This document shows positions 8,047 through 36,535 of a stretch of DNA of 36,535 nucleotides, piece by piece (position 1 is the stretch's first letter; every line of letters starts with the position of its first letter). The position numbers were made by a program, and so were the translations under genes. The notes under the pieces were generated by a model. That model saw nothing but the letters and a program-made list of their open reading frames with translations. It made no database searches and was not told the origin of the DNA. The stretch lies in the sequence record DRR723986_1300; one strand, 5' to 3'.

Positions 8047-10053
8047 TCAGCGGTTAATCGCCTCGTACTGGGCATAGCGTGGCAGGATGGGCTGCAGGAT
8101 CTCCTGCAGTTCCTCCAACTCGCTCGCATAGCGCCGCCAGCTGTTGATCGCCCCGGTGTAGATTGGCTGGCGCACCTGCTCTGAACTGGCGGTGCGCACC
8201 GGGCGATCAGTTTCGTGAAAGTTGAGGCAGGCGTCCTCCCAGGGGAGTTCGCAGAAGTCCAGGATGCGCCGCACCTGGCTTTCCAGATCGAGCACCGTGT
8301 CTTCGTACTGCACGCGCAGCACCTTGCCCGGCAGTACCTCATCCCAGTGATCCATCAGGCGGTGATACTCCAGGCAGTATTCACCGATGTCGGCGATGTC
8401 GTAGGTAAAGTGCTGGCCCTTGGCGTAGAGCTGCTTGAGGTTGCCCAGGCAGGCATCCATGGGGTTGCGGCGGGCGTCGATAATCTTCGCGTTGGGCAGG
8501 ACCAGGTGGATGAGGCCCACGCTGGGAAAGTTATTGGGCATCTTGTCGATGAAGCAGGGCTTGCCCTCAACCCGGTGCATCCGCGCCCAGCCGAGGTAGT
8601 CGCTGCCCATGCGGTCGAAGTGCTCATCTGGCAGCTCACGCACGGCCTCCGGGTAATTCACCCCACCGACCCGGTTGCGATTGAGGCCGGCGGACAGGCG
8701 CCCGATATAGGGCAGTTCGCTGGTACCCTCCACCCGTGAATGGCTGGCGAGAATCTGCTCGGTCAGGGTCGAACCGGAGCGGGGCATGCCGAGAATGAAG
8801 ATCGGCGCGCTGTCCGGGTTACCGACGCCGGACCGGGTCGCCAGGAACTCGCGGCTGAACACCTCGATGATAGCGTCGTTCAACACCTCGGTGCGCACCG
8901 GGTCGTAGTTCACCAACTGGCGCTGCTTCTCATTGCCGAGCTGGTAGTGCTGCCAGGCCTGCTGGCTGTCCTTGCGGTCCTCGAAGGCCTTGCCCAGGGC
9001 GAAATAGAAGTTCACCTCGGACTGGGGCTCGAGGTCGCCGCCGGCCAGGCGCTCCTGCATCTGCGCCAGCTCGCTGTCGCTGAAGCTGTAGGTCTTGAGG
9101 TTGGCCATGCTCCAGTAAATCTCGCCGTTTTCCGGGCGCTGCTCGATACAGCGCCGGTAGGCCTCGATCGCTTCCTGCTGCCGGCCCACGGTTTTCAGGG
9201 CATGGCCCAGGCCGAGCAGGGCGCCGGCGTGATTCGGCTTCAGCGCCAGGCAGCGTTGCTGCGCTTCGACCGCGCGTTCGTTCAGGGCGGCCTGCGACAG
9301 GACGCCCGCGAGCAGGAAATGGGCCTGGGCGTTGTCAGGTGTGTTCTCGATAACCTTCTCGAAACAGCCGATGGCCTCGGTCCAGCGGTCCTGGTCCTTG
9401 TACAGGTTGCCGAGGTCGAGCAGGGCGAGGTTGTAGTCCGGCGCCAGGCCGGTAACCCGCTCGAGCAGCATTTCTGCGTCTTCGATCTTGCCCGCCCCGG
9501 CGGCGATCAATGCCAGCAGGCGCATGGCATCGACGTTATTGCGCTCACGCTGCAGGATCCGGCGGCAGATCCCCTCGGCTTCCTCCAGCCGGCCCTCCCG
9601 GTGCGCCTGGGCGGCCCGCGCCAGTTCGTGGCGCTCGGGGGCGAGGGCAAAGGCTTTCTCGTAGGCGTCATCGGCCTCCTTGCCGCGACCGCACATCGCC
9701 AGCGCCTTGCCGAGGTGGAACCAGGCGGATTCCAGCTCCTGGTCCAGGCGCACGGCCTTTTCCAGCAGTGGGATCGCTTCCTCCGCGCGTTGCAGGCCGA
9801 CCAGCAGCATGCCCAGGTCCTCGTGGGGCTTGGCGAAGGTGGGGGCCAGGTCGATGGTCTTGCGCAGCAGTTTCTCCGCCTCGCGGGGCTGGCGCAGCTG
9901 AATATGGATAGCGCCGCTCAGGCCGAGGATATTGACGTCGCCGGGACTGCGCTGCAGGGCCCGGTTGCAGGTTTCCAGTGCCTGTTGCGGTTGGCCTTCG
10001 CCCAGCAGGCGGATGGCTTGTTCAAAGGTTGCGCGGGAGGCTTCCAGCGGCAT
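8047..10053 (-). CDS. TPR-repeat sulfotransferase-domain protein
   Basis: About 380 aa of TPR helices followed by ILGMPRSGSTLTEQIL (5'-PSB), FIDKMPNN and TASSEQVRQPIY. Confidence 0.9.
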   Translation of the reverse strand: MPLEASRATFEQAIRLLGEGQPQQALETCNRALQRSPGDVNILGLSGAIHIQLRQPREAEKLLRKTIDLAPTFAKPHEDLGMLLVGLQRAEEAIPLLEKAVRLDQELESAWFHLGKALAMCGRGKEADDAYEKAFALAPERHELARAAQAHREGRLEEAEGICRRILQRERNNVDAMRLLALIAAGAGKIEDAEMLLERVTGLAPDYNLALLDLGNLYKDQDRWTEAIGCFEKVIENTPDNAQAHFLLAGVLSQAALNERAVEAQQRCLALKPNHAGALLGLGHALKTVGRQQEAIEAYRRCIEQRPENGEIYWSMANLKTYSFSDSELAQMQERLAGGDLEPQSEVNFYFALGKAFEDRKDSQQAWQHYQLGNEKQRQLVNYDPVRTEVLNDAIIEVFSREFLATRSGVGNPDSAPIFILGMPRSGSTLTEQILASHSRVEGTSELPYIGRLSAGLNRNRVGGVNYPEAVRELPDEHFDRMGSDYLGWARMHRVEGKPCFIDKMPNNFPSVGLIHLVLPNAKIIDARRNPMDACLGNLKQLYAKGQHFTYDIADIGEYCLEYHRLMDHWDEVLPGKVLRVQYEDTVLDLESQVRRILDFCELPWEDACLNFHETDRPVRTASSEQVRQPIYTGAINSWRRYASELEELQEILQPILPRYAQYEAINR

Positions 10054-10061
10054 CTGTCATC

Positions 10062-29159: not shown

Positions 29160-30395
29160 TCAGATGGATTCCCGCGGGATATCGAAGTGGTTCTCGTAGT
29201 TCGCGAACATCGCGCGCAGTTCCTCCAGGTCCAGGCCGGTGTCGGCCAATTGGTACAGATGCTTGCCGAACTTGTCCGCCGGGTTGTCGTCGAGGAAGGC
29301 CTGCATCGCGTTCGCGGCCTGATCTGACAGGGTCAAGTCGAAGTGCGCATAGGCGCGTCGCACTGTGCCCACCTGGTCCGCCATAAAATCCCGGAAGTAG
29401 AGATCGACCACTTGCTCAGGCGGTAATTTACCCGACTGGCGGTAGGCCACCGTGTTGTCATAGCCCTGGGCGAGTGCCTCAGCATAGTAAGCCGCTACCG
29501 TAGGCAGGTTCGCATAGTCGCTGCCCAGGCCCTGCAGGGTCGCGGCCAGGTTGCTCATGGAAATCACGGTCTTCACCGGGTCCCGGTGGGTTTGCACGAA
29601 CAGGGCGTCAGGGTATTCCCGGTGCACGTGCTCCAGGTGCCACATGTGCTGGGGCGACTTCAGTGCCCAGCGCTTGCCCGGACATTTCCACTGCAGGATC
29701 TGCAGGAAGCGCCGATGCCACTTGAAGGCGGATTCCATAGCGTTGGCGCAGACCCAGCGATCGTAGGTGGGCACGTTGAACTGTACGTAGTAGACCATCG
29801 AGGTCAGGTCGTGTGCGGTCATCGCCACACACTCCTGCGCCCGTTGCGCGCCCATGGGGTGCATGGTCTTGAACTCCGGCAGCAGCTGGTCGACCCGGTC
29901 GAGGTCGGCGGTGACCCGGGCAATGCGCGGGTCCGAAGTGTAGGTCGCGGTTTCCGGCGGCGGCAGGGGATAAGACGCCTCCCAGGCCAGGGGCACGCGG
30001 TTGTCCGGGTCCATCGCCAGCAGGTCGTGGAAGATGGTGGTGCCCGAGCGGGGCGGCCCGACCACGAACAGGGGGCGTTCCACGGGCTGCTCGGCAATCT
30101 CGGGATGACGCGTCAGCAAGTCGACCATACCGAGGCGGTTCTCCAGGGTTCGCAGCAGGTCGGTTCGAGCGATCATCCGTCCCAGGATGGACAGTCGCGC
30201 CTCGCCCTCAAGGCTGGTCAGTAACAATTTCAGCGGCGCCTCGAAGTCGTCCTCCCCGAAATCACTGAGGCCGGTGTTGGCGCGGGCCTTGTTCAGCAGG
30301 CCGTCGAAGCTGAGGTCGACCGGGTGGAGGCCCACGGCTTGTGCGCCGCGCCCTCCGAGATTCATAAGACGTATCGCCAGTGGCAGGCGGCTCAT
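29160..30395 (-). CDS. Sulfotransferase family protein (Sulfotransfer_3, mycobacterial Stf-like)
   Basis: VVGPPRSGTTIFHDLL, WALKSPQH, THRDPVKTVIS. Confidence 0.9.
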   Translation of the reverse strand: MSRLPLAIRLMNLGGRGAQAVGLHPVDLSFDGLLNKARANTGLSDFGEDDFEAPLKLLLTSLEGEARLSILGRMIARTDLLRTLENRLGMVDLLTRHPEIAEQPVERPLFVVGPPRSGTTIFHDLLAMDPDNRVPLAWEASYPLPPPETATYTSDPRIARVTADLDRVDQLLPEFKTMHPMGAQRAQECVAMTAHDLTSMVYYVQFNVPTYDRWVCANAMESAFKWHRRFLQILQWKCPGKRWALKSPQHMWHLEHVHREYPDALFVQTHRDPVKTVISMSNLAATLQGLGSDYANLPTVAAYYAEALAQGYDNTVAYRQSGKLPPEQVVDLYFRDFMADQVGTVRRAYAHFDLTLSDQAANAMQAFLDDNPADKFGKHLYQLADTGLDLEELRAMFANYENHFDIPRESI

Positions 30396-30396
30396 C

Positions 30397-31512
30397 TCAA
30401 TTCCCCAGGTCGCTGAATTTCACCACCGAGGCCTGCGGTGTCTCCACCTCGCCCTCAACCATGAAGTAACGCCAGAACACCAGCCCGAACAGCCGGCCCT
30501 CGGTATCGATCCAGTTAGGGACCCCCGGGTCCTCGTGGGCCAGCACCACCGTGAAACTGCCGTCGGGCTCGAGTTCCGTCTGGCTGCGGTTGAGGGCGAC
30601 CTGGCGGTTGCGGTAATCCAGGGTCTGCTGGAAGCGGTTCCACAGGGCCACGCTGGCGAAGCTGCAGCTGGGCCAGCGGCCGCTGATGACCAGCGCTTCA
30701 TCGGCGTTGATAAAGAAGGGGGCCATGGAGTAGTGCGCGTCGGCGGCGGCCAGGCCGAAGTCTGCCGGCGGCTGGGGCTGCGGGAACTGGTTGGGCACCA
30801 GGGAGACGAAGCCGGGCGGCTGGGTATTGGCCATCGGCGGCATGCCGAGGGTGCGGCTATGCAGGGCGTTGGACACCCGGCGGATACCGGCGGCAATGCT
30901 GGCGTCATTCGGCGGCGGTGGCGCCTGGCTGGCGCTCAGGCACTCAATGCGCATGCGTGGCTCCAGCGCCGGGTCCAGCGCTGCGGGTGACGTCTGCTCG
31001 TAGTAATGCCTGGTGGTGAGACGGGAGGCCCCGGGGGACAGGGCGAGCCAGTTCTTCGCCCGCGGTTCACCGCCGAGGTACAGGGTGAAACTGCCGTTAC
31101 TGTCGACATCCATATCGGTGTTGTTGATAACGCCTGCAGTATTGCTCGCCATATGACCTTCCTCCATGCCTTCCTCGATGGTCAGGGAGAAGTAGACCGC
31201 GCCCTGCATCGAGCCGTGCAGCACATAGGCGTGTTCCGGCGACAGGGGGGCGTCGAAGTAGATTGCGTCCTGGTTGTCGCCGGTAAGCTTGCGACTGGGG
31301 GTGACGATGCGGCGCAGGTCCGGGCTGGCGGCATCCTGCTCGAAGTAGCCCACCAGGCTGGCCTCCAGGGTATGCATCAGCGCGCGGTGGGAGTCGGCCA
31401 CGTCTTCCGGCGAGTGGAGATTCCACTCCGGGCCGGACCAGCGCTGGTCGATTTCCTGCAATAGGGCGATGAATTCCTGCAGCGCGCTGCGGCTCTCGGT
31501 TGTTATGCTCAT
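30397..31512 (-). CDS. DUF1214-domain protein
   Basis: GDNQDAIY, LWNRFQQTLDY, DGSFTVVLAHEDPGVPNWIDTEG; AAGGAG SD before ATG 31512; stop 1 nt before the sulfotransferase start. Confidence 0.75.
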   Translation of the reverse strand: MSITTESRSALQEFIALLQEIDQRWSGPEWNLHSPEDVADSHRALMHTLEASLVGYFEQDAASPDLRRIVTPSRKLTGDNQDAIYFDAPLSPEHAYVLHGSMQGAVYFSLTIEEGMEEGHMASNTAGVINNTDMDVDSNGSFTLYLGGEPRAKNWLALSPGASRLTTRHYYEQTSPAALDPALEPRMRIECLSASQAPPPPNDASIAAGIRRVSNALHSRTLGMPPMANTQPPGFVSLVPNQFPQPQPPADFGLAAADAHYSMAPFFINADEALVISGRWPSCSFASVALWNRFQQTLDYRNRQVALNRSQTELEPDGSFTVVLAHEDPGVPNWIDTEGRLFGLVFWRYFMVEGEVETPQASVVKFSDLGN

Positions 31513-31648
31513 AGGGGCTCCTTGACGCCTGGGGCCGCATCGGCGGCCGCCGTGAATTATTGTTGTACCCGGATACTGAAGTGCCCGCGCCAAAATCGCA
31601 ATCGCTGCGCGCTGGCCCGAACGCCGGGGGTGGGCGGTTTTGGGTCGC

Positions 31649-31679
31649 TTGACCTTCCAGTGGTGGGAAGGTGTAGTAT
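31649..31679 (+). promoter_or_regulatory. CueR-type (MerR family) copper-responsive sigma70 promoter
   Basis: -35 TTGACC (31649-31654), 19-bp spacer, -10 TAGTAT (31674-31679); dyad ACCTTCC-N7-GGAAGGT (31652-31672) matches the canonical CueR box. Confidence 0.92.
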
Positions 31680-31712
31680 TCAACGCTTGGATTTCAACGG
31701 CGGGTCACTGCC

Positions 31713-32105
31713 TTGCACAACGGGACACGAAAAGCGGTTCACTGGGTACTGGCGCTGGTCATCTGGGGTCAGGCCCTGGCTGCTGTCGCCTTGCCCTGTG
31801 GCAGCGTTCCCGAGCTGCCCGCCGAGCATGCCAGTGTTGCCGCCGATATCGATCCCCACGCCGGACACCATGCGGCCGCCAGCACCGATGCATCCGCTCA
31901 CGCCGACCACGGCATGGATGAGGCAGGTATGTCCTGCTGTGACGGCGGCTACTGCTCCGCCAATGGTTGCCTCTCCCTGCCGGCCGTTACCTCACCGTTG
32001 GCGATACGTCACGCGCTGGCGACCGGCACCATGCCGGCATCGATCACACCCCTGTTCCAATCCCTGGCCCTGACCGCCCTGTTCCGTCCCCCTGCTGTCG
32101 CCTGA
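31713..32105 (+). CDS. CopL/CutF/DUF2946-like small metal-binding leader protein
   Basis: TTG start, signal-like segment, His-rich tract, CCDGGYCSANGC, C-terminal LFRPP; first ORF after the CueR promoter. Confidence 0.75.
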   Translation: MHNGTRKAVHWVLALVIWGQALAAVALPCGSVPELPAEHASVAADIDPHAGHHAAASTDASAHADHGMDEAGMSCCDGGYCSANGCLSLPAVTSPLAIRHALATGTMPASITPLFQSLALTALFRPPAVA

Positions 32106-32229
32106 CACAGGACAGCTGCGCCCGCCGTTCGCGTGAGGGCAGCCAACCCAGCCGATATTACTCGCTGAGCTGACTTCAGCGGCCCCGTCTTTGCGGTGGC
32201 CGGGAGTCTGTGACAGGACGGAACAGAAC

Positions 32230-33582
32230 ATGAACAACACAATTGAATACCGCTTGCGTGCCGGCCGCAAACTCGCAGGCGCGCTACTGGCCCTGGTCCT
32301 CTGGGCCCCGCTGCCGGCGTCGGCCATCGACCTGGCCGAGGCCATCGCCGCCGCCCAGGCCAACGATCCCTGGCTGTCCGGCAGCCGGGCGAGGGAGGAG
32401 GCACTGCTGGCGCGCGGCGTCGCGGCCGGCAGCCTGCCGGATCCCATGGTCAGCCTCGGCCTCGCCAACCTGCCGACAGATACCTTCGATTTTGACCAGG
32501 AGCCGATGACCCAGTTCAAGGTCGGCGTGTCGCAGGTGTTCCCCCGCGGCGACAGCCGCAGCCTGGTGGAACGCCAGTACCAGCTGTGGGGCGAGGAACA
32601 TCCGCACCAGCGCGCCGACCGGCGGGCCCGGGTGGCGCTGAGTGTGACAAGCCTTTGGCTGGAGGCCTACCGCGCGCAGGCGAGCATCGCCCTGATCGAG
32701 CGTGACCGCAGCCTGTTCGAGCAACTGGTGGCAGTGGCGGAAGCCAACTACACCTCGGCCCTGGGGCGCACCCGGCAGCAGGATCTGATCCGCGCGCAAC
32801 TGGAGCTGACCCGTCTGGACGAGCGCCTCAGCAAACTACGGGAAGACCTGGAGACCAGCAGCGCCCGGCTGGGCGAGTGGCTGCTGTCCACGGACCCGGC
32901 GGGTGCCACGTTCGGCCCGCTGACGGCCGGTGGGTTTGCGCTGGCAAGCGAGCCTGCGATCGCGCCTCGACTCCCGGCGCTGCTTGAGCCTCAGGGCGAT
33001 GTTTCCCTGAACCGGCTGGGCGAACTGCTGCGCCGGCACCCGTCGGTGCTGGCTCAGGAAAGCCGGATAGCAGCAACCGCGGCGGGGATCGACATTGCCG
33101 AGCAGGACTATCGTCCCCAGTGGCGACTGGACGCCAGTTATGGCTACCGCGATGACGACCCGCTGGCCGGGCGTCGTGCCGACTTCTTCTCGCTGGGGGT
33201 GGCCTTCGACCTGCCCCTGTGGACGGAGAAACGCCAGGACCAGGGTGTGCGTTCTGCCACCGCCGCGACCGAGGCCATGCGCACCGAGCGGTCCTTGCTG
33301 CTGCGCCGTCTGCTGGCCAGCTTTGAGACCGAGCGTGCGCGCCTGGTCCGGCTGGACGAGCGCCAGGGCCTGTACCGCGACCGCCTGCTGAAAGAGATGA
33401 GCGACCAGGCCGAGGCAGCCCTGACCGCCTACACCAATGACGATGGCGATTTCTCGGAAGTAGTTAGGGCCCGCATCGCCGAGTTGAACGCCAATATCGA
33501 TGTGCTGGGAATCGACGTGCAGCGCATGGCCACAATCAGCCAGCTTAACTACCTGTTGGCCGGGGAGGATACCTCGCTATGA
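32230..33582 (+). CDS. cusC: TolC-family outer membrane factor of heavy-metal RND efflux
   Basis: Signal peptide, LPDPMVSLGLANLP..FDFDQEPMTQ, FSLGVAFDLPLW; position in the operon. Start ATG 32230. Confidence 0.85.
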   Translation: MNNTIEYRLRAGRKLAGALLALVLWAPLPASAIDLAEAIAAAQANDPWLSGSRAREEALLARGVAAGSLPDPMVSLGLANLPTDTFDFDQEPMTQFKVGVSQVFPRGDSRSLVERQYQLWGEEHPHQRADRRARVALSVTSLWLEAYRAQASIALIERDRSLFEQLVAVAEANYTSALGRTRQQDLIRAQLELTRLDERLSKLREDLETSSARLGEWLLSTDPAGATFGPLTAGGFALASEPAIAPRLPALLEPQGDVSLNRLGELLRRHPSVLAQESRIAATAAGIDIAEQDYRPQWRLDASYGYRDDDPLAGRRADFFSLGVAFDLPLWTEKRQDQGVRSATAATEAMRTERSLLLRRLLASFETERARLVRLDERQGLYRDRLLKEMSDQAEAALTAYTNDDGDFSEVVRARIAELNANIDVLGIDVQRMATISQLNYLLAGEDTSL

Positions 33583-34829
33583 ACAAGACACTGAGCAAAA
33601 TGTTGTTGGTGAGTATTGGCCTGCTGCTGGGCATCGCCGGCACCGCGAGCTGGTTGTCCGGGACCCATCACAGTCGTGATGGAACCGCTGACGCGCCGGC
33701 CGAACGCGAGCCGCTGTACTGGGTAGCGCCCATGGACCCGGACTACCGTCGCGACGGCCCGGGCAAATCGCCCATGGGCATGGACCTGGTACCGGTGTAC
33801 GCGGATGAGGCCAGGGAAGACGCCAGAAAAGACGCCGCCGGTACCGTGTCGATCGCGCCGGAGGTGGTCAACAGCCTGGGCGTGCGCAGTGCGCCGGTGC
33901 GCCGGGAGAGCCTGGACAGTGAGATTCGCACGGTGGGTCACCTGCGCTACGACGAGGAGGGGCTGGTGCATATCCACCCGCGGGTCGAAGGCTGGATAGA
34001 AGCGCTATACGTGCAGGCCGCGGGTGATCCGGTGGTCAAGGACCAGCCGCTGTACGAGCTTTACTCGCCGCAGCTGGTGGCGGCCCAGGAGGAACTGGTG
34101 CTGGCCTTGCGGCGTGACAGTTCGACCCTGGTGCGGGCGGCGGAAGACCGCCTGCGCGCGCTGCAGTTGGCGCCGGACGTGATCGAGGCCATTAAGCGTG
34201 ATCGGCAGGTGCGCCAGACGGTGCTGTTTCGCGCGCCGCAGGACGGGGTGCTGGATAACCTGAACATCCGCAAGGGTTTCTTCGTTGGGCCCGAGACCAC
34301 CCTGATGTCGATCGGCTCGCTGGATGAAATCTGGGTGGAAGCGGAAGTGTTTGAACGCCAGGCCGCGCGGGTTGCGGTTGGGCAGCCGGTGGTCATGACC
34401 CTGGATTTCCTGCCCGGACGGCGCTGGACCGGCGAGGTTAACTACATCTATCCCTCACTTGATGAGACTACCCGCACCCTGCGTCTTCGCCTGCGCTTCC
34501 CCAATCCGGAGCGCGAGCTTCGACCCAATATGTTTGCCCAGGTGGTAATCCGCACGGGCGATGGTGAACCCGCGCTGGTGGTACCGCGGGAGGCGGTAAT
34601 CCGGGTAGCCCACCAGGACCGGGTGGTACTGGACCTCGGCGATGGGCGCTACCGCTCCACGCCGGTGCGGCTCGGCCGGCTGGGAGAAAGCCGCTACGAG
34701 ATCGTGGCCGGGCTGGAGGCGGGCGACCGGGTAGTGACCTCGGCCCAGTTCCTGCTCGACTCGGAATCGAATCGCCAGGCGGAACTGCAGCGCATGGGCG
34801 ATGCGCCTGAGCAGGAGTCATCACCGTGA
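33579..34829 (+). CDS. cusB: CusB-family periplasmic adaptor with heavy-metal-binding motif
   Basis: [71 protein letters not shown] overlap. Confidence 0.93.
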
Positions 34830-36535
34830 TTGAAGCCATCATTCGCTGGTCGGTGGGCAACCGCATCCTGGTCCTGCTGGCCACGTTGGTACTGGTGGGG
34901 GTGGGCCTGTTCGCGGTGCGCCACACGCCGGTAGACGCGATACCCGATCTCTCCGATGTGCAGGTGATCATCAAGACCGATTACCCCGGGCAGGCGCCAC
35001 AGGTGGTTGAAGACCAGGTTACCTATCCCCTGACCACCGCCATGCTGTCGGTTCCGGGCGCGGTGACCGTGCGCGGCTTCTCCTTCTTTGGTGACTCCTA
35101 TGTGTACGTCATCTTCGACGAGGACACCGACCTGTACTGGGCCCGCAGCCGGGTGCTGGAATACCTGAGCCAGGTAGCGCCCTCCCTGCCGGCCACTGCG
35201 CGGCCGCAGCTGGGGCCGGATGCCACAGGGGTCGGCTGGGTCTATATCTACGCCCTGGTGGACCGCACCGGCGGCCACGACCTGGGCGAGCTGCGCAGCC
35301 TGCAGGACTGGTTCCTCAAGTACGAACTGCAGTCGGTGCCCGGGGTCTCCGAGGTCGCTTCCGTGGGCGGCATGGTGCGCCAGTACCAGGTGCGGGTGCA
35401 CCCGGACCGACTGCGCGCCTACGGCATTCCGCTGGAGCACATCGCCAACGCGATCCGCCGCGCCAACCAGGAGGTGGGGGCATCTGTGGTGGAGATGGCG
35501 GAGGCGGAGTACATGGTGCGTGCTTCCGGCTACCTGACCGGGGAGAGCGATCTCGCCCATGTGCCCCTGGGGATCAATGCCAACGGCACGCCGCTGCTGC
35601 TGGGCGATGTGGCGGACATTGGCCGCGGGCCGCAGATGCGCCGTGGCGTGGCCGAACTCAATGGCGAGGGTGAGGCCGTGGGCGGGATCGTGGTGATGCG
35701 CTACGGTGAGAACGCCCTGCAAACCATCGACGGGGTGAAGGCCCGGCTTGCTGAACTGCGCGCCAGCCTGCCCGACGGGGTGGAGATCCTTACCGTTTAC
35801 GATCGCTCGGGCCTGATCGAAGAAGCGATCAGCAACCTGTGGCGCAAGCTGGGCGGGGAACTGTTACTCGTGGCCCTGATCTGTACGATGTTCCTCTTCC
35901 ACCTGCGATCCTCACTGGTGGCGGTGGTCACCCTGCCTATCGGCGTACTCGCCGCGTTTGCGGTGATGTACTTCCAGGGGCTCAACGCCAACATCATGTC
36001 GCTGGGTGGTATTGCCATTGCCATCGGGGCAATGATCGACGGCGCCATCGTGCTGATTGAGAACATGCACAAGCACCTCGAGCGTGCGCCGCCGGGTAAG
36101 GTTGATCGCTGGGCGATTGTCACCGAAGCGGTGGTGGAAGTCGGGCCGGCCCTGTTCTTCAGCCTGCTGATCATTACCGTGAGCTTTGTGCCGGTGTTTG
36201 CACTCGAGGCGCAGGAAGGGCGCATGTTTTCGCCGCTGGCCTTCACCAAGACCTACGCCATGGCCGCAGCCGCGGCGCTGTCGATCACTCTGGTGCCAGT
36301 GTTGATGGGGTACTTCATCACCGGCCGTATCCGTAGTGAGAACAGCAACCCGGTGAACCGGGTGCTGACCGCCGCTTACCGCCCCGCGCTGCGGGCGGTA
36401 TTGGCCCACCCCGGGCTCACCCTGGCGGCAGCGCTGCTGGTGCTGCTGAGCAGCCTGTGGCCCCTGTCGCGGATCGGCAGCGAGTTCATCCCGCCGCTGG
36501 ACGAGGGCGACCTGATGTACATGCCCACCACCTAC
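34826..36535 (+). CDS. cusA: CusA-family Cu(I)/Ag(I) RND efflux pump (3'-truncated; absent from the ORF track)
   Basis: GTGA overlap; translates [13 protein letters not shown]...[38 protein letters not shown]...[20 protein letters not shown]...[20 protein letters not shown] and stays open to the window end. Confidence 0.96.

Follow-up and report, generated by a model that had tools for sequence, protein, structure and literature searches.

A CopL-like leader gene whose Arg-Pro-Pro codons are complementary to the ribosome-binding region of a cusC-like gene: a probable CutF-type leader of a copper efflux operon

Cus-type copper efflux pumps are generally regarded as transcriptionally controlled, by CusRS or CueR. 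A stretch of DNA of 36,535 nt from sequence record DRR723986_1300, which as a whole is referred to here as the window, raises the question whether such a pump may also be controlled during translation, by a small gene standing directly before it. In the window a short leader gene lies 5' of a cusC-like gene, and an earlier note on this DNA had claimed that codons near the end of the leader pair with the Shine-Dalgarno (SD) region of cusC and that a ribosome paused on them frees the ribosome-binding site. Having followed up this note, we consider it probable, with considerable room for doubt, that the gene is a cis-acting copper-type leader of the CutF/CopL class which gates cusC through a pause at Arg-Pro-Pro (RPP). 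The parts on which this proposal builds are the following.

31713..32105, plus strand: leader gene, CopL-like/CutF-like, in the list of open reading frames (ORFs) with TTG start, TGA stop and 130 aa plus stop
31713..31781, plus strand: signal-peptide-like N-terminus, residues 1-23, read by eye and conserved in the alignment of relatives
31935..31970, plus strand: Cys motif CCDGGYCSANGC, residues 75-86, with C75, C76, C81 and C86 invariant in 42/42 sequences
31971..32087, plus strand: spacer from Cys to Pro-Pro, residues 87-125, of fixed length and poorly conserved sequence
32085..32093, plus strand: presumed arrest site, Arg-Pro-Pro codons CGT CCC CCT, with R125 nearly invariant and P126 and P127 invariant
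32079..32089, plus strand: anti-SD arm CTGTTCCGTCC, made up of the codons for L123, F124 and R125 and the first two bases of P126
32216..32226, plus strand: SD arm GGACGGAACAG, the purine-rich ribosome-binding region of the cusC-like gene, from the inverted-repeat listing

The complementarity of the Leu-Phe-Arg-Pro codons with the SD region of cusC, as claimed, is exact: CTGTTCCGTCC is the 11-nt reverse complement of GGACGGAACAG, and AAC separates the SD arm from the ATG at 32230. Inverted repeats of at least 11 nt within 200 nt occur 23 times in the 36.5-kb window, five of them with separated arms, and three of these five are exact 11-mers. As separated 11-nt repeats are not rare in the window, it is the placement on the SD that counts. 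The minimum-energy fold of 32060-32250 holds the helix (-76.3 kcal/mol, z -3.7, 0/200 shuffles as good), and the SD is predicted to pair with the ORF tail with a probability of 0.91, compared to 0.54 with a shuffled tail, which makes the window an extreme case. An extension of the helix by TGTCGC and GTGACA, also proposed earlier, formed only when the two strands were folded as a duplex by themselves, containing one G-U pair and a 6-nt bulge, and was absent from the fold of the whole region.

The pairing is also unusual for the peptide encoded. When the last 13 leader codons were recoded synonymously with the codon usage of the cus genes, only 3/300 samples gave a duplex at least as strong as the native one (-27.2 kcal/mol; recoded mean -19.4), and the native probability of SD-tail pairing was reached in 5/80 samples. 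The Arg codon used in the leader tail, CGT, is a minority codon in the cus genes (19/126 Arg codons). In silico the locus has the layout of an arrest-leader attenuator, with an arm of the SD helix lying under the arrested ribosome, qualified by a second possible partner of the SD at 32052-32058 which is treated below. DNA contigs from four marine metagenome runs contained 10 variant places in 31640-32300, none of them in the helix arms, a result that at about 1.4% divergence is uninformative.

For a comparison with relatives, 59 non-identical loci were used, from each of which the tail of the leader, the spacer and the start predicted for the following gene were extracted; this start was picked on its SD score in the neighbourhood of the position to which the alignment pointed. 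In the loci with an efflux-type gene downstream the SD paired mainly with the leader tail in 18/40 (P>=0.5) or 24/40 (P>=0.4), and the partner codons were usually within [LFY]-R-P-P-x. Own tail-SD duplexes were stronger than those combined across loci (mean -13.5 compared to -12.2 kcal/mol; permutation P 0.0002 with the window, 0.001 without it and 0.0055 when six close duplicates were also left out) and stronger than duplexes with segments drawn at random from nearby (-10.1 and -10.9; Wilcoxon 9e-7 and 6e-4 without the window). The duplex of the window was the strongest among 1600 tail-by-SD combinations. In the efflux-type loci, GGAC was found in the SD region of 11/17 loci with CGT as Arg codon and of 2/14 loci with CGC (Fisher 0.009, uncorrected for phylogeny). 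A corresponding link of GGGC with the CGC codon was rejected (4/14 and 2/17).

The three closest loci, in which the pairs were read directly from the sequences, keep the helix through compensatory changes on both sides. In L040 and L041, where a GACAGGACG-type region precedes the ATG, the wobble pair of the Phe codon has changed from C-G to U-A and the helix is kept. In L005 the second-position pair of the same codon has changed from U-A to A-U, giving Tyr, together with a G-U pair at the wobble position. A modest lineage-specific fit between tail and SD thus exists.

The leader itself has the anatomy that had been claimed, a signal-like N-terminus and a LFRPPAVA end, in a 130-aa ORF which belongs to a conserved family. 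In the N-terminus, MHNGTRKAVHWVLALVIWGQALAAVALPC, the basic residues R6 and K7 are followed by a hydrophobic core and then by A21-L22-A23. What had been called a His tract is a His-rich stretch (H49, H52, H53, H63 and H66), but not a contiguous one. Invariant in the 42-sequence alignment are Q20, C29, H49, C75, C76, C81, C86, P126 and P127, and H52 and R125 are nearly so. The family ends in the consensus [FY]RPP, rarely in L/H/K variants, followed by two or three residues before the stop codon in 61/62 loci. The supposed likeness to the RAPP motif did not hold, as both the leader motif F-R-P-P and the family consensus differ from it, and the leader lacks the motif that marks the RAPP-type arrest peptides (CruR, ApdA/ApdP). 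Arrest at its Arg-Pro-Pro codons is presumed by analogy with CutF and CruR.

The best family match of the leader was the NCBIfam model CopL_fam (NF033807), with an E value of 4.5e-7 and 30.5 bits, which misses the curated cut-off of 40 bits. The alignment is nearly end to end (leader residues 19-127, model positions 15-127 of 129), and all 42 aligned members matched the model at E<=0.1, the best at 5.1e-11. A Pfam scan of the leader gave no match, and for DUF2946 (PF11162) nothing was found at E<=1; 7/42 relatives matched this family weakly (best E 0.0023). With the leader as query a word-indexed protein search found no match, and an exhaustive search of 1.84 billion representatives found 44 relatives at E<=0.001. 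The sole public protein identical to part of the leader (31929-32105, 100% identity) is P0001, which has 58 aa and starts at M73; the public gene call is therefore truncated, gene callers missing the TTG start. Judged by this conservation, the leader is a real gene under selection for its peptide.

Based on the published rules for CutF-like proteins (Ozturk 2023), the leader is shorter than 150 residues (130 aa), has C-terminal prolines (P126-P127 of 130) and is followed after 124 nt by the ATG of the cusC-like gene. As to the Sec signal that the rules name, a basic n-region, a hydrophobic core and A-L-A were seen by eye and are kept in relatives. On the strength of the family match and these rules, we assign the leader to a branch of the published CutF-like leader proteins that resembles CopL.

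A further feature of the family is the spacer between the Cys cluster and the prolines. The distance from the last Cys to the first Pro is 40 residues in 36/42 members and 39-41 in 41/42, and the single outlier has an additional Cys inside the spacer. Across 62 non-identical loci the median is 40 (interquartile range (IQR) 40-40). A spacer fixed in length while its sequence drifts suggests that the position of the Cys cluster during decoding of Pro-Pro matters. The exit tunnel of the ribosome holds about 30-40 residues, a figure on which PMC9973294 also draws. The fixed spacer is our strongest new argument and suggests that the nascent chain, and not the mature protein, is the working form.

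All related loci that carry names are from Halieaceae. In samples drawn around one Halieaceae reference, matches were found in 78/301 genomes of the order (alignment A1 as query) and in 66/251 genomes of the family (alignment A2), and a class-wide sample searched with the CopL_fam model at E<=1e-6 gave matches in 7/300 genomes. The DNA of the window is present in marine plankton metagenomes, and the public runs listed as carrying it include none of RNA. In a plasmid collection, a DNA search gave only short cusC matches in four records, and tblastn with the relative P0023 gave no match. The gene 3' of the leader in 59 classified loci is an efflux outer-membrane gene in 40, DUF411 in 17 and a multicopper oxidase in two, labels of which one example in each class was checked.

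The surroundings of the leader in the window are those of a copper operon.

31649..31679, plus strand: MerR/CueR-type promoter, with -35 TTGACC at 31649-31654, a 19-nt spacer and -10 TAGTAT at 31674-31679
32230..33582, plus strand: cusC-like outer-membrane efflux protein (Pfam OEP, E 2.6e-30), its start at 32230 picked by SD position and alignment with relatives
33579..34829, plus strand: cusB-like adaptor (HlyD_D23 E 1.8e-78, HMBD, NCBIfam CusB E 1.5e-62)
34826..36535, plus strand: RND pump gene in the cusA position, open at the window end, named by position and sequence reading

The promoter spacer has the length (19-20 nt) and contains the dyad expected of a MerR/CueR operator. The dyad, CCTTCC-N7-GGAAGG (6+7+6) at 31653-31671, is the only one in the window (0.10 expected by shuffles), and an exact copy lies 5' of the leader gene in 6/83 related loci. 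The layout of a dyad within the spacer at 31649-31679 is what we take to be the CueR/MerR operator type. The CueR control that had been claimed would fit this type of promoter; a scan of 21 ORFs of the window found no cueR or other MerR-family gene. Between leader and cusC lie 124 nt of structured sequence, in which neither an intrinsic terminator nor an internal promoter was found. Overlaps of 4 nt join the cusC stop to the cusB start (33579-33582) and the cusB stop to the pump start (34826-34829), implying translational coupling by which control of cusC initiation would pass down the operon. The sequence thus supports a cusCBA-type operon headed by the leader behind a promoter of apparent MerR/CueR type. 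Divergent from this promoter, the minus strand at 29163-31683 encodes a DUF1214 protein and a sulfotransferase-family protein unrelated to copper; a second sulfotransferase, fused to TPR repeats, is located at 8050-10056.

From the observed gene, family, spacer, helix and operon, we infer pausing, a dependence on copper or export and an effect on cusC, and the system would work as follows. The MerR/CueR-type promoter would transcribe the leader together with cusCBA. At rest the L-F-R-P codons (32079-32089) would pair with the cusC SD region (32216-32226) and the pump would be poorly translated. The leader would be exported co-translationally, and when Arg-Pro-Pro is decoded the Cys cluster would be 40-51 residues behind the peptidyl-transferase centre, just out of the tunnel. 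Copper, by binding the Cys cluster or by preventing disulfide formation, would prolong the RPP pause, the paused ribosome would cover the anti-SD arm, and cusC would be initiated, with cusB and cusA, each overlapping the gene before it by 4 nt, to follow. The interpretation given in the earlier note stands as regards anatomy, family, operon and the pairing of the RPP codons with the SD, but the mechanism had already been published for CutF, as passages of PMC9973294 describe.

Whether a paused ribosome would open the helix was assessed by folding, on the assumption that the ribosome covers about -12 to +15 relative to the P-site. With P126 in the P-site and 45 nt of leader included, SD pairing was 0.42. 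With the ribosome at the stop codon and the same length of leader, 9 nt of the arm were free and the probability of SD-tail pairing was 0.71. An arm that is covered at RPP and partly free at the stop codon fits gating at RPP rather than at termination. The outcome depends, however, on a further element upstream.

32052..32058, plus strand: second copy of CTGTTCC, made up of the codons L114-F115 and the first base of Q116, an alternative partner of the SD

When the RPP footprint was masked, the SD was predicted to pair with 32052-32058 with a probability of about 0.99. The closest relative, P0003, has LFQS about ten residues before its LFRPP.

Several results weigh against the proposed gating. 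With 90 nt of leader the SD is still 0.85 paired under a stalled ribosome, because it pairs again with the second CTGTTCC at 32052-32058, and in this longer context it opens (0.37) only when a queued second ribosome is added. Across the 59 loci, masking of the stalled footprint changed SD pairing only from 0.72 to 0.66 (P 0.0001), compared to no effect (0.71) for a control footprint placed upstream. The proposal that an RPP-paused ribosome frees the cusC site is accordingly sound in that the footprint covers the anti-SD arm, but in longer context the second copy captures the SD again. Equilibrium folding lends weak support to the on-state. Kinetics and ribosome queues matter for this opening.

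The pairing in relatives also has a less specific side. With the 48-nt tail dinucleotide-shuffled, the probability of SD-tail pairing in the 40 efflux-type loci was 0.35 compared to 0.40 for the native tail, which is not a significant difference, and in the DUF411 group the native value was below the shuffled one. With the whole upstream region shuffled, the SD was still 0.67 paired compared to 0.72 in the native sequences (59 loci, P 0.001, a small effect). Intergenic sequence is the main partner of the SD in 8/40 efflux-type loci, and downstream sequence in three. The shuffling controls indicate that a purine- or G-rich SD tends to be paired by a C-rich tail whatever the order of the bases in the tail, and that much of the family-level tail:SD pairing stems from composition. 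The comparative evidence, for which the earlier note had named covariation in orthologs as a check, is mixed: the compensatory changes, the own-versus-cross comparison and the association of codon and SD speak for the pairing, and the shuffled tails, which pair about equally well, and the second CTGTTCC copy speak against it. It also speaks against the proposal that the leader starts at TTG with only a weak SD-like GGCGGG upstream, and that its F-R-P-P differs from the R-A-P-P that has been shown to arrest.

The likeliest alternative is plain translational coupling, with the ORF encoding a copper-binding protein that is exported and stable, the role suggested for CusD of Cupriavidus metallidurans. 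Any passing ribosome would then open the helix for a short time and cusC would be translated along with the leader, and neither arrest nor sensing by the nascent chain would take part. The footprint geometry allows such opening by any ribosome that passes, the Cys and His motifs are conserved, RPP is not proven as an arrest motif, and CusD is described in parts of PMC10304878 as a periplasmic copper-binding lipoprotein and possible donor to CusF. However, a 40-residue spacing fixed in length and not in sequence is hard to understand for a folded mature protein and easy for ribosome geometry, and the invariant RPP followed by two or three residues and a stop (61/62 loci) is left unexplained. 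Moreover, the relatives that have been studied, CutF and CruR, either escape detection or are short-lived as proteins, and CutF works in cis alone (PMC9973294 and PMC9426467). We regard coupling of this kind as rather unlikely.

Rho-dependent attenuation as for CruR would be compatible with RPP gating. The C-rich end of the leader would load Rho, the RPP pause would hide the site and let transcription continue into cusCBA, and the helix would be secondary. The GC skew over 32020-32109 is -0.42 to -0.45, the strongest C-over-G excess in 31600-32500, and the 124-nt structured intergenic region lacks an intrinsic terminator and an internal promoter. The mapped cruR rut lies in a comparable region, according to a section of PMC9426467, and in C. 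metallidurans the transcript levels of cusD differ from those of cusCBAF (PMC10304878 and PMC7563307, in part). On the other hand, Rho sites are not reliably predictable from sequence, the polarity of CruR is opposite, copper switching an uptake system off, and neither the exact 11-nt SD match nor the compensatory changes would be needed. As the explanation of this locus we find Rho attenuation unlikely, and it may act together with SD masking.

That the complementarity is a by-product without a regulatory role, CCN and CGN codons being naturally complementary to a purine-rich SD and the 11-nt match being lucky, is very unlikely: shuffled tails of relatives pair with the SD nearly as well as native ones, the mean for cross-locus duplexes (-12.2 kcal/mol) differs little from that for own duplexes (-13.5 kcal/mol) and separated 11-nt inverted repeats occur three times in the window, but the window pairing is the best of 1600 combinations and beats 297/300 synonymous recodings, the own-versus-cross permutation is significant without the window, and the codon-SD association and compensatory changes add to this. 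Chance and composition are thus weakened by the recoding, permutation and compensatory results, yet they explain much of the family-level signal.

A further element of the family lies directly after the stop codon of the leader.

32106..32148, plus strand: box (CACAGGACAG) and hairpin after the leader stop, from per-sequence folds and comparison of related loci

A CACAGGAYAG-type box, followed by GUGCGCC and a two-tier hairpin, is found in 59/62 non-identical loci, whatever the downstream gene. Counted from the first base of the Arg codon, the AGG of the box begins at +24 in 49/49 loci with three residues after Pro-Pro, and at +24 or +25 in 8/9 loci with two. The distance is the same despite the earlier stop, so the box tracks RPP rather than the stop codon; a stop codon moved without an indel would give the same picture. 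In the per-sequence folds of 62 loci the hairpin starts at a median of +24 (IQR 22-25) with a mean z of -1.7, and 20/62 are below -2. The 3' arms of the hairpin vary in sequence and register and still pair with the box, e.g. GAUAGC/GCUAUC, GACAGG/CCUGUC, CAGGUGC/GCACCUG and GCGGG/CCCGC. RNAalifold found no consensus pairs in the region after the stop because these arms are in different registers. A search of Rfam gave nothing at E<=1 for the window region and only a chance-level RsaD match for seven related loci. Covariation of the box (GGAYAG) with the Phe/Tyr codon was considered and rejected after a by-eye check of nine loci.

Many leaders with an ISR tail (PPISR) show an additional arrangement. 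At 50-60 nt past the stop they carry AGCGGGAG, which is complementary to the final codons of the leader (L012, L015, L020, L022, L024, L027, L052, L057, L061, L066, L072 and others), and in the DUF411-type loci among them ACUCCC and a GGGAG-type SD come after AGCGGGAG. In sequence this layout reads as a four-segment switch like that of ermC, with 1:2 and 3:4 against 2:3. In L020 the poly-C run of the Pro codons is longer by one C, which shifts the frame after Pro-Pro, so that the tail reads RPPHFPLK and the stop lies within the box; the change is either a natural frameshift variant or an error of sequencing.

It is possible, and we put it forward tentatively, that CopL-like leaders carry a combined peptide and RNA arrest cassette, with the 40-residue spacer on the one side and the box and two-tier hairpin on the other, acting as a kinetic RNA switch. 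The spacer would set the Cys cluster at the tunnel exit while RPP is decoded, and the box and hairpin, 24 nt after the Arg codon, would lie just ahead of a ribosome seated on RPP. RNA and nascent chain might then hold or time the ribosome, or choose the helix that forms after its release, the competing helices being tail:box, tail:SD and second CTGTTCC:SD. If this is true, translation of the pump would depend on a kinetic RNA switch of a kind described neither for CutF nor for CruR.

Returning to RPP gating of cusC, the locus adds a well-defined, computationally tractable example of a probable second, translational layer of control before cusCBA. The leader family occurs in roughly a quarter of the sampled genomes of the order (78/301), and the spacer and helix offer a means of asking if the CutF model also holds for CopL-like leaders and for efflux pumps. 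As the locus further shows, such leaders are truncated or overlooked by gene callers. A literature search found no further work on such leaders before efflux pumps beyond the papers cited here.

Among known systems, the more distant ones are the leaders that sense secretion activity or antibiotics and not metal (SecM, MifM, VemP and ErmCL), which have no sequence relation to the window leader. In ErmCL-ermC, an arrested leader ribosome opens the helix that hides the SD of the next gene. In SecM-secA, MifM-yidC2 and VemP-secDF the ribosome likewise arrests near the leader end and opens a helix hiding the SD, according to a passage in PMC9973294.

CruR (Bp2923) of Bordetella pertussis couples arrest at RAPP to Rho-dependent termination, as described in parts of PMC9426467. 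It resembles the window leader in its place upstream of the regulated gene, in having a Cys motif and, at the C-terminus, an arrest motif (presumed in the window leader) and, as far as these parts describe it, in its C-rich, G-poor 3' part and long structured intergenic region. The same sections describe differences: CruR has RAPP, is a DUF2946 member, controls an uptake receptor, has its stalling relieved by copper and is independent of a signal peptide.

The CusD/SilD genes of Cupriavidus metallidurans (cusDCBAF/silDCBA) are, by their descriptions, small Cys/His-rich first genes 5' of cusC/silC. Of cusDCBAF only the small first gene cusD is expressed without added metal (PMC10304878, in part), and cusD is expressed when cusCBAF is not and uninduced when cusCBAF is induced (parts of PMC10304878 and PMC7563307). 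CusD differs in being described as a Tat-exported periplasmic copper-binding lipoprotein that may hand copper to CusF, in the passages of PMC10304878 that concern it. Both CusD and SilD are labelled CutF-like in Fig. 6 of PMC9973294.

CopL of Xanthomonas (copLAB, NF033807) is the best family match of the leader and is matched by all 42 relatives, and the canonical locus L075 (75.9 bits) ends in FRPP and two residues. In Xanthomonas CopL precedes a copper oxidase. The window leader differs in scoring below the curated cut-off (30.5 compared to 40 bits), and L075 is without a box of the window type after the stop codon. CopL is counted as CutF-like and copL acts only in cis, according to a section of PMC9973294.

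The closest model is CutF of Rhodobacter capsulatus (cutFOG). According to the sections of PMC9973294 that deal with it, CutF requires a Sec signal peptide, a CxxxC motif and C-terminal prolines, acts only in cis and opens a stem-loop hiding the cutO SD; its Cys-to-Pro distance of 45 residues is suggested by its authors to be critical. A dependence of CutF on EF-P and the PPP motif is also reported in part of a preprint (bioRxiv 10.1101/2025.02.05.636593). Like CutF, the window leader is encoded by a small gene that stands first in an operon for copper detoxification, and the two have in common a Cys motif about 40-45 residues before the prolines, a proline motif a few codons before the stop and the next SD in a helix that a stalled ribosome would open; the N-terminus of the window leader looks like a Sec-type signal. 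In contrast, CutF has DUF2946, CxxxC and PPP, whereas the window leader has CCx4Cx4C, FRPP and no Pfam DUF2946 match, and the next gene is a multicopper oxidase for CutF and an efflux outer-membrane protein in the window. The CutF stem-loop is described, in the part of the account that covers it, as intergenic, whereas in the window the 5' arm lies within the codons of the RPP region, an arrangement known from other arrest leaders. In the survey of 5,334 CutF-like proteins summarized in PMC9973294, efflux outer-membrane genes (CusC/CzcC/SilC) are the leading downstream neighbour, and the portion consulted places CopL, CusD, SilD and CruR in the CutF-like network. The present subfamily may already be within the lists of this survey. 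It is a fair application of the published CutF-type mechanism to regard the window system as a well-marked member of the CutF/CopL class and not as a new kind of system. What is new here is the exact 40-residue spacer, the natural compensatory changes in the helix, the second anti-SD copy and the conserved hairpin.

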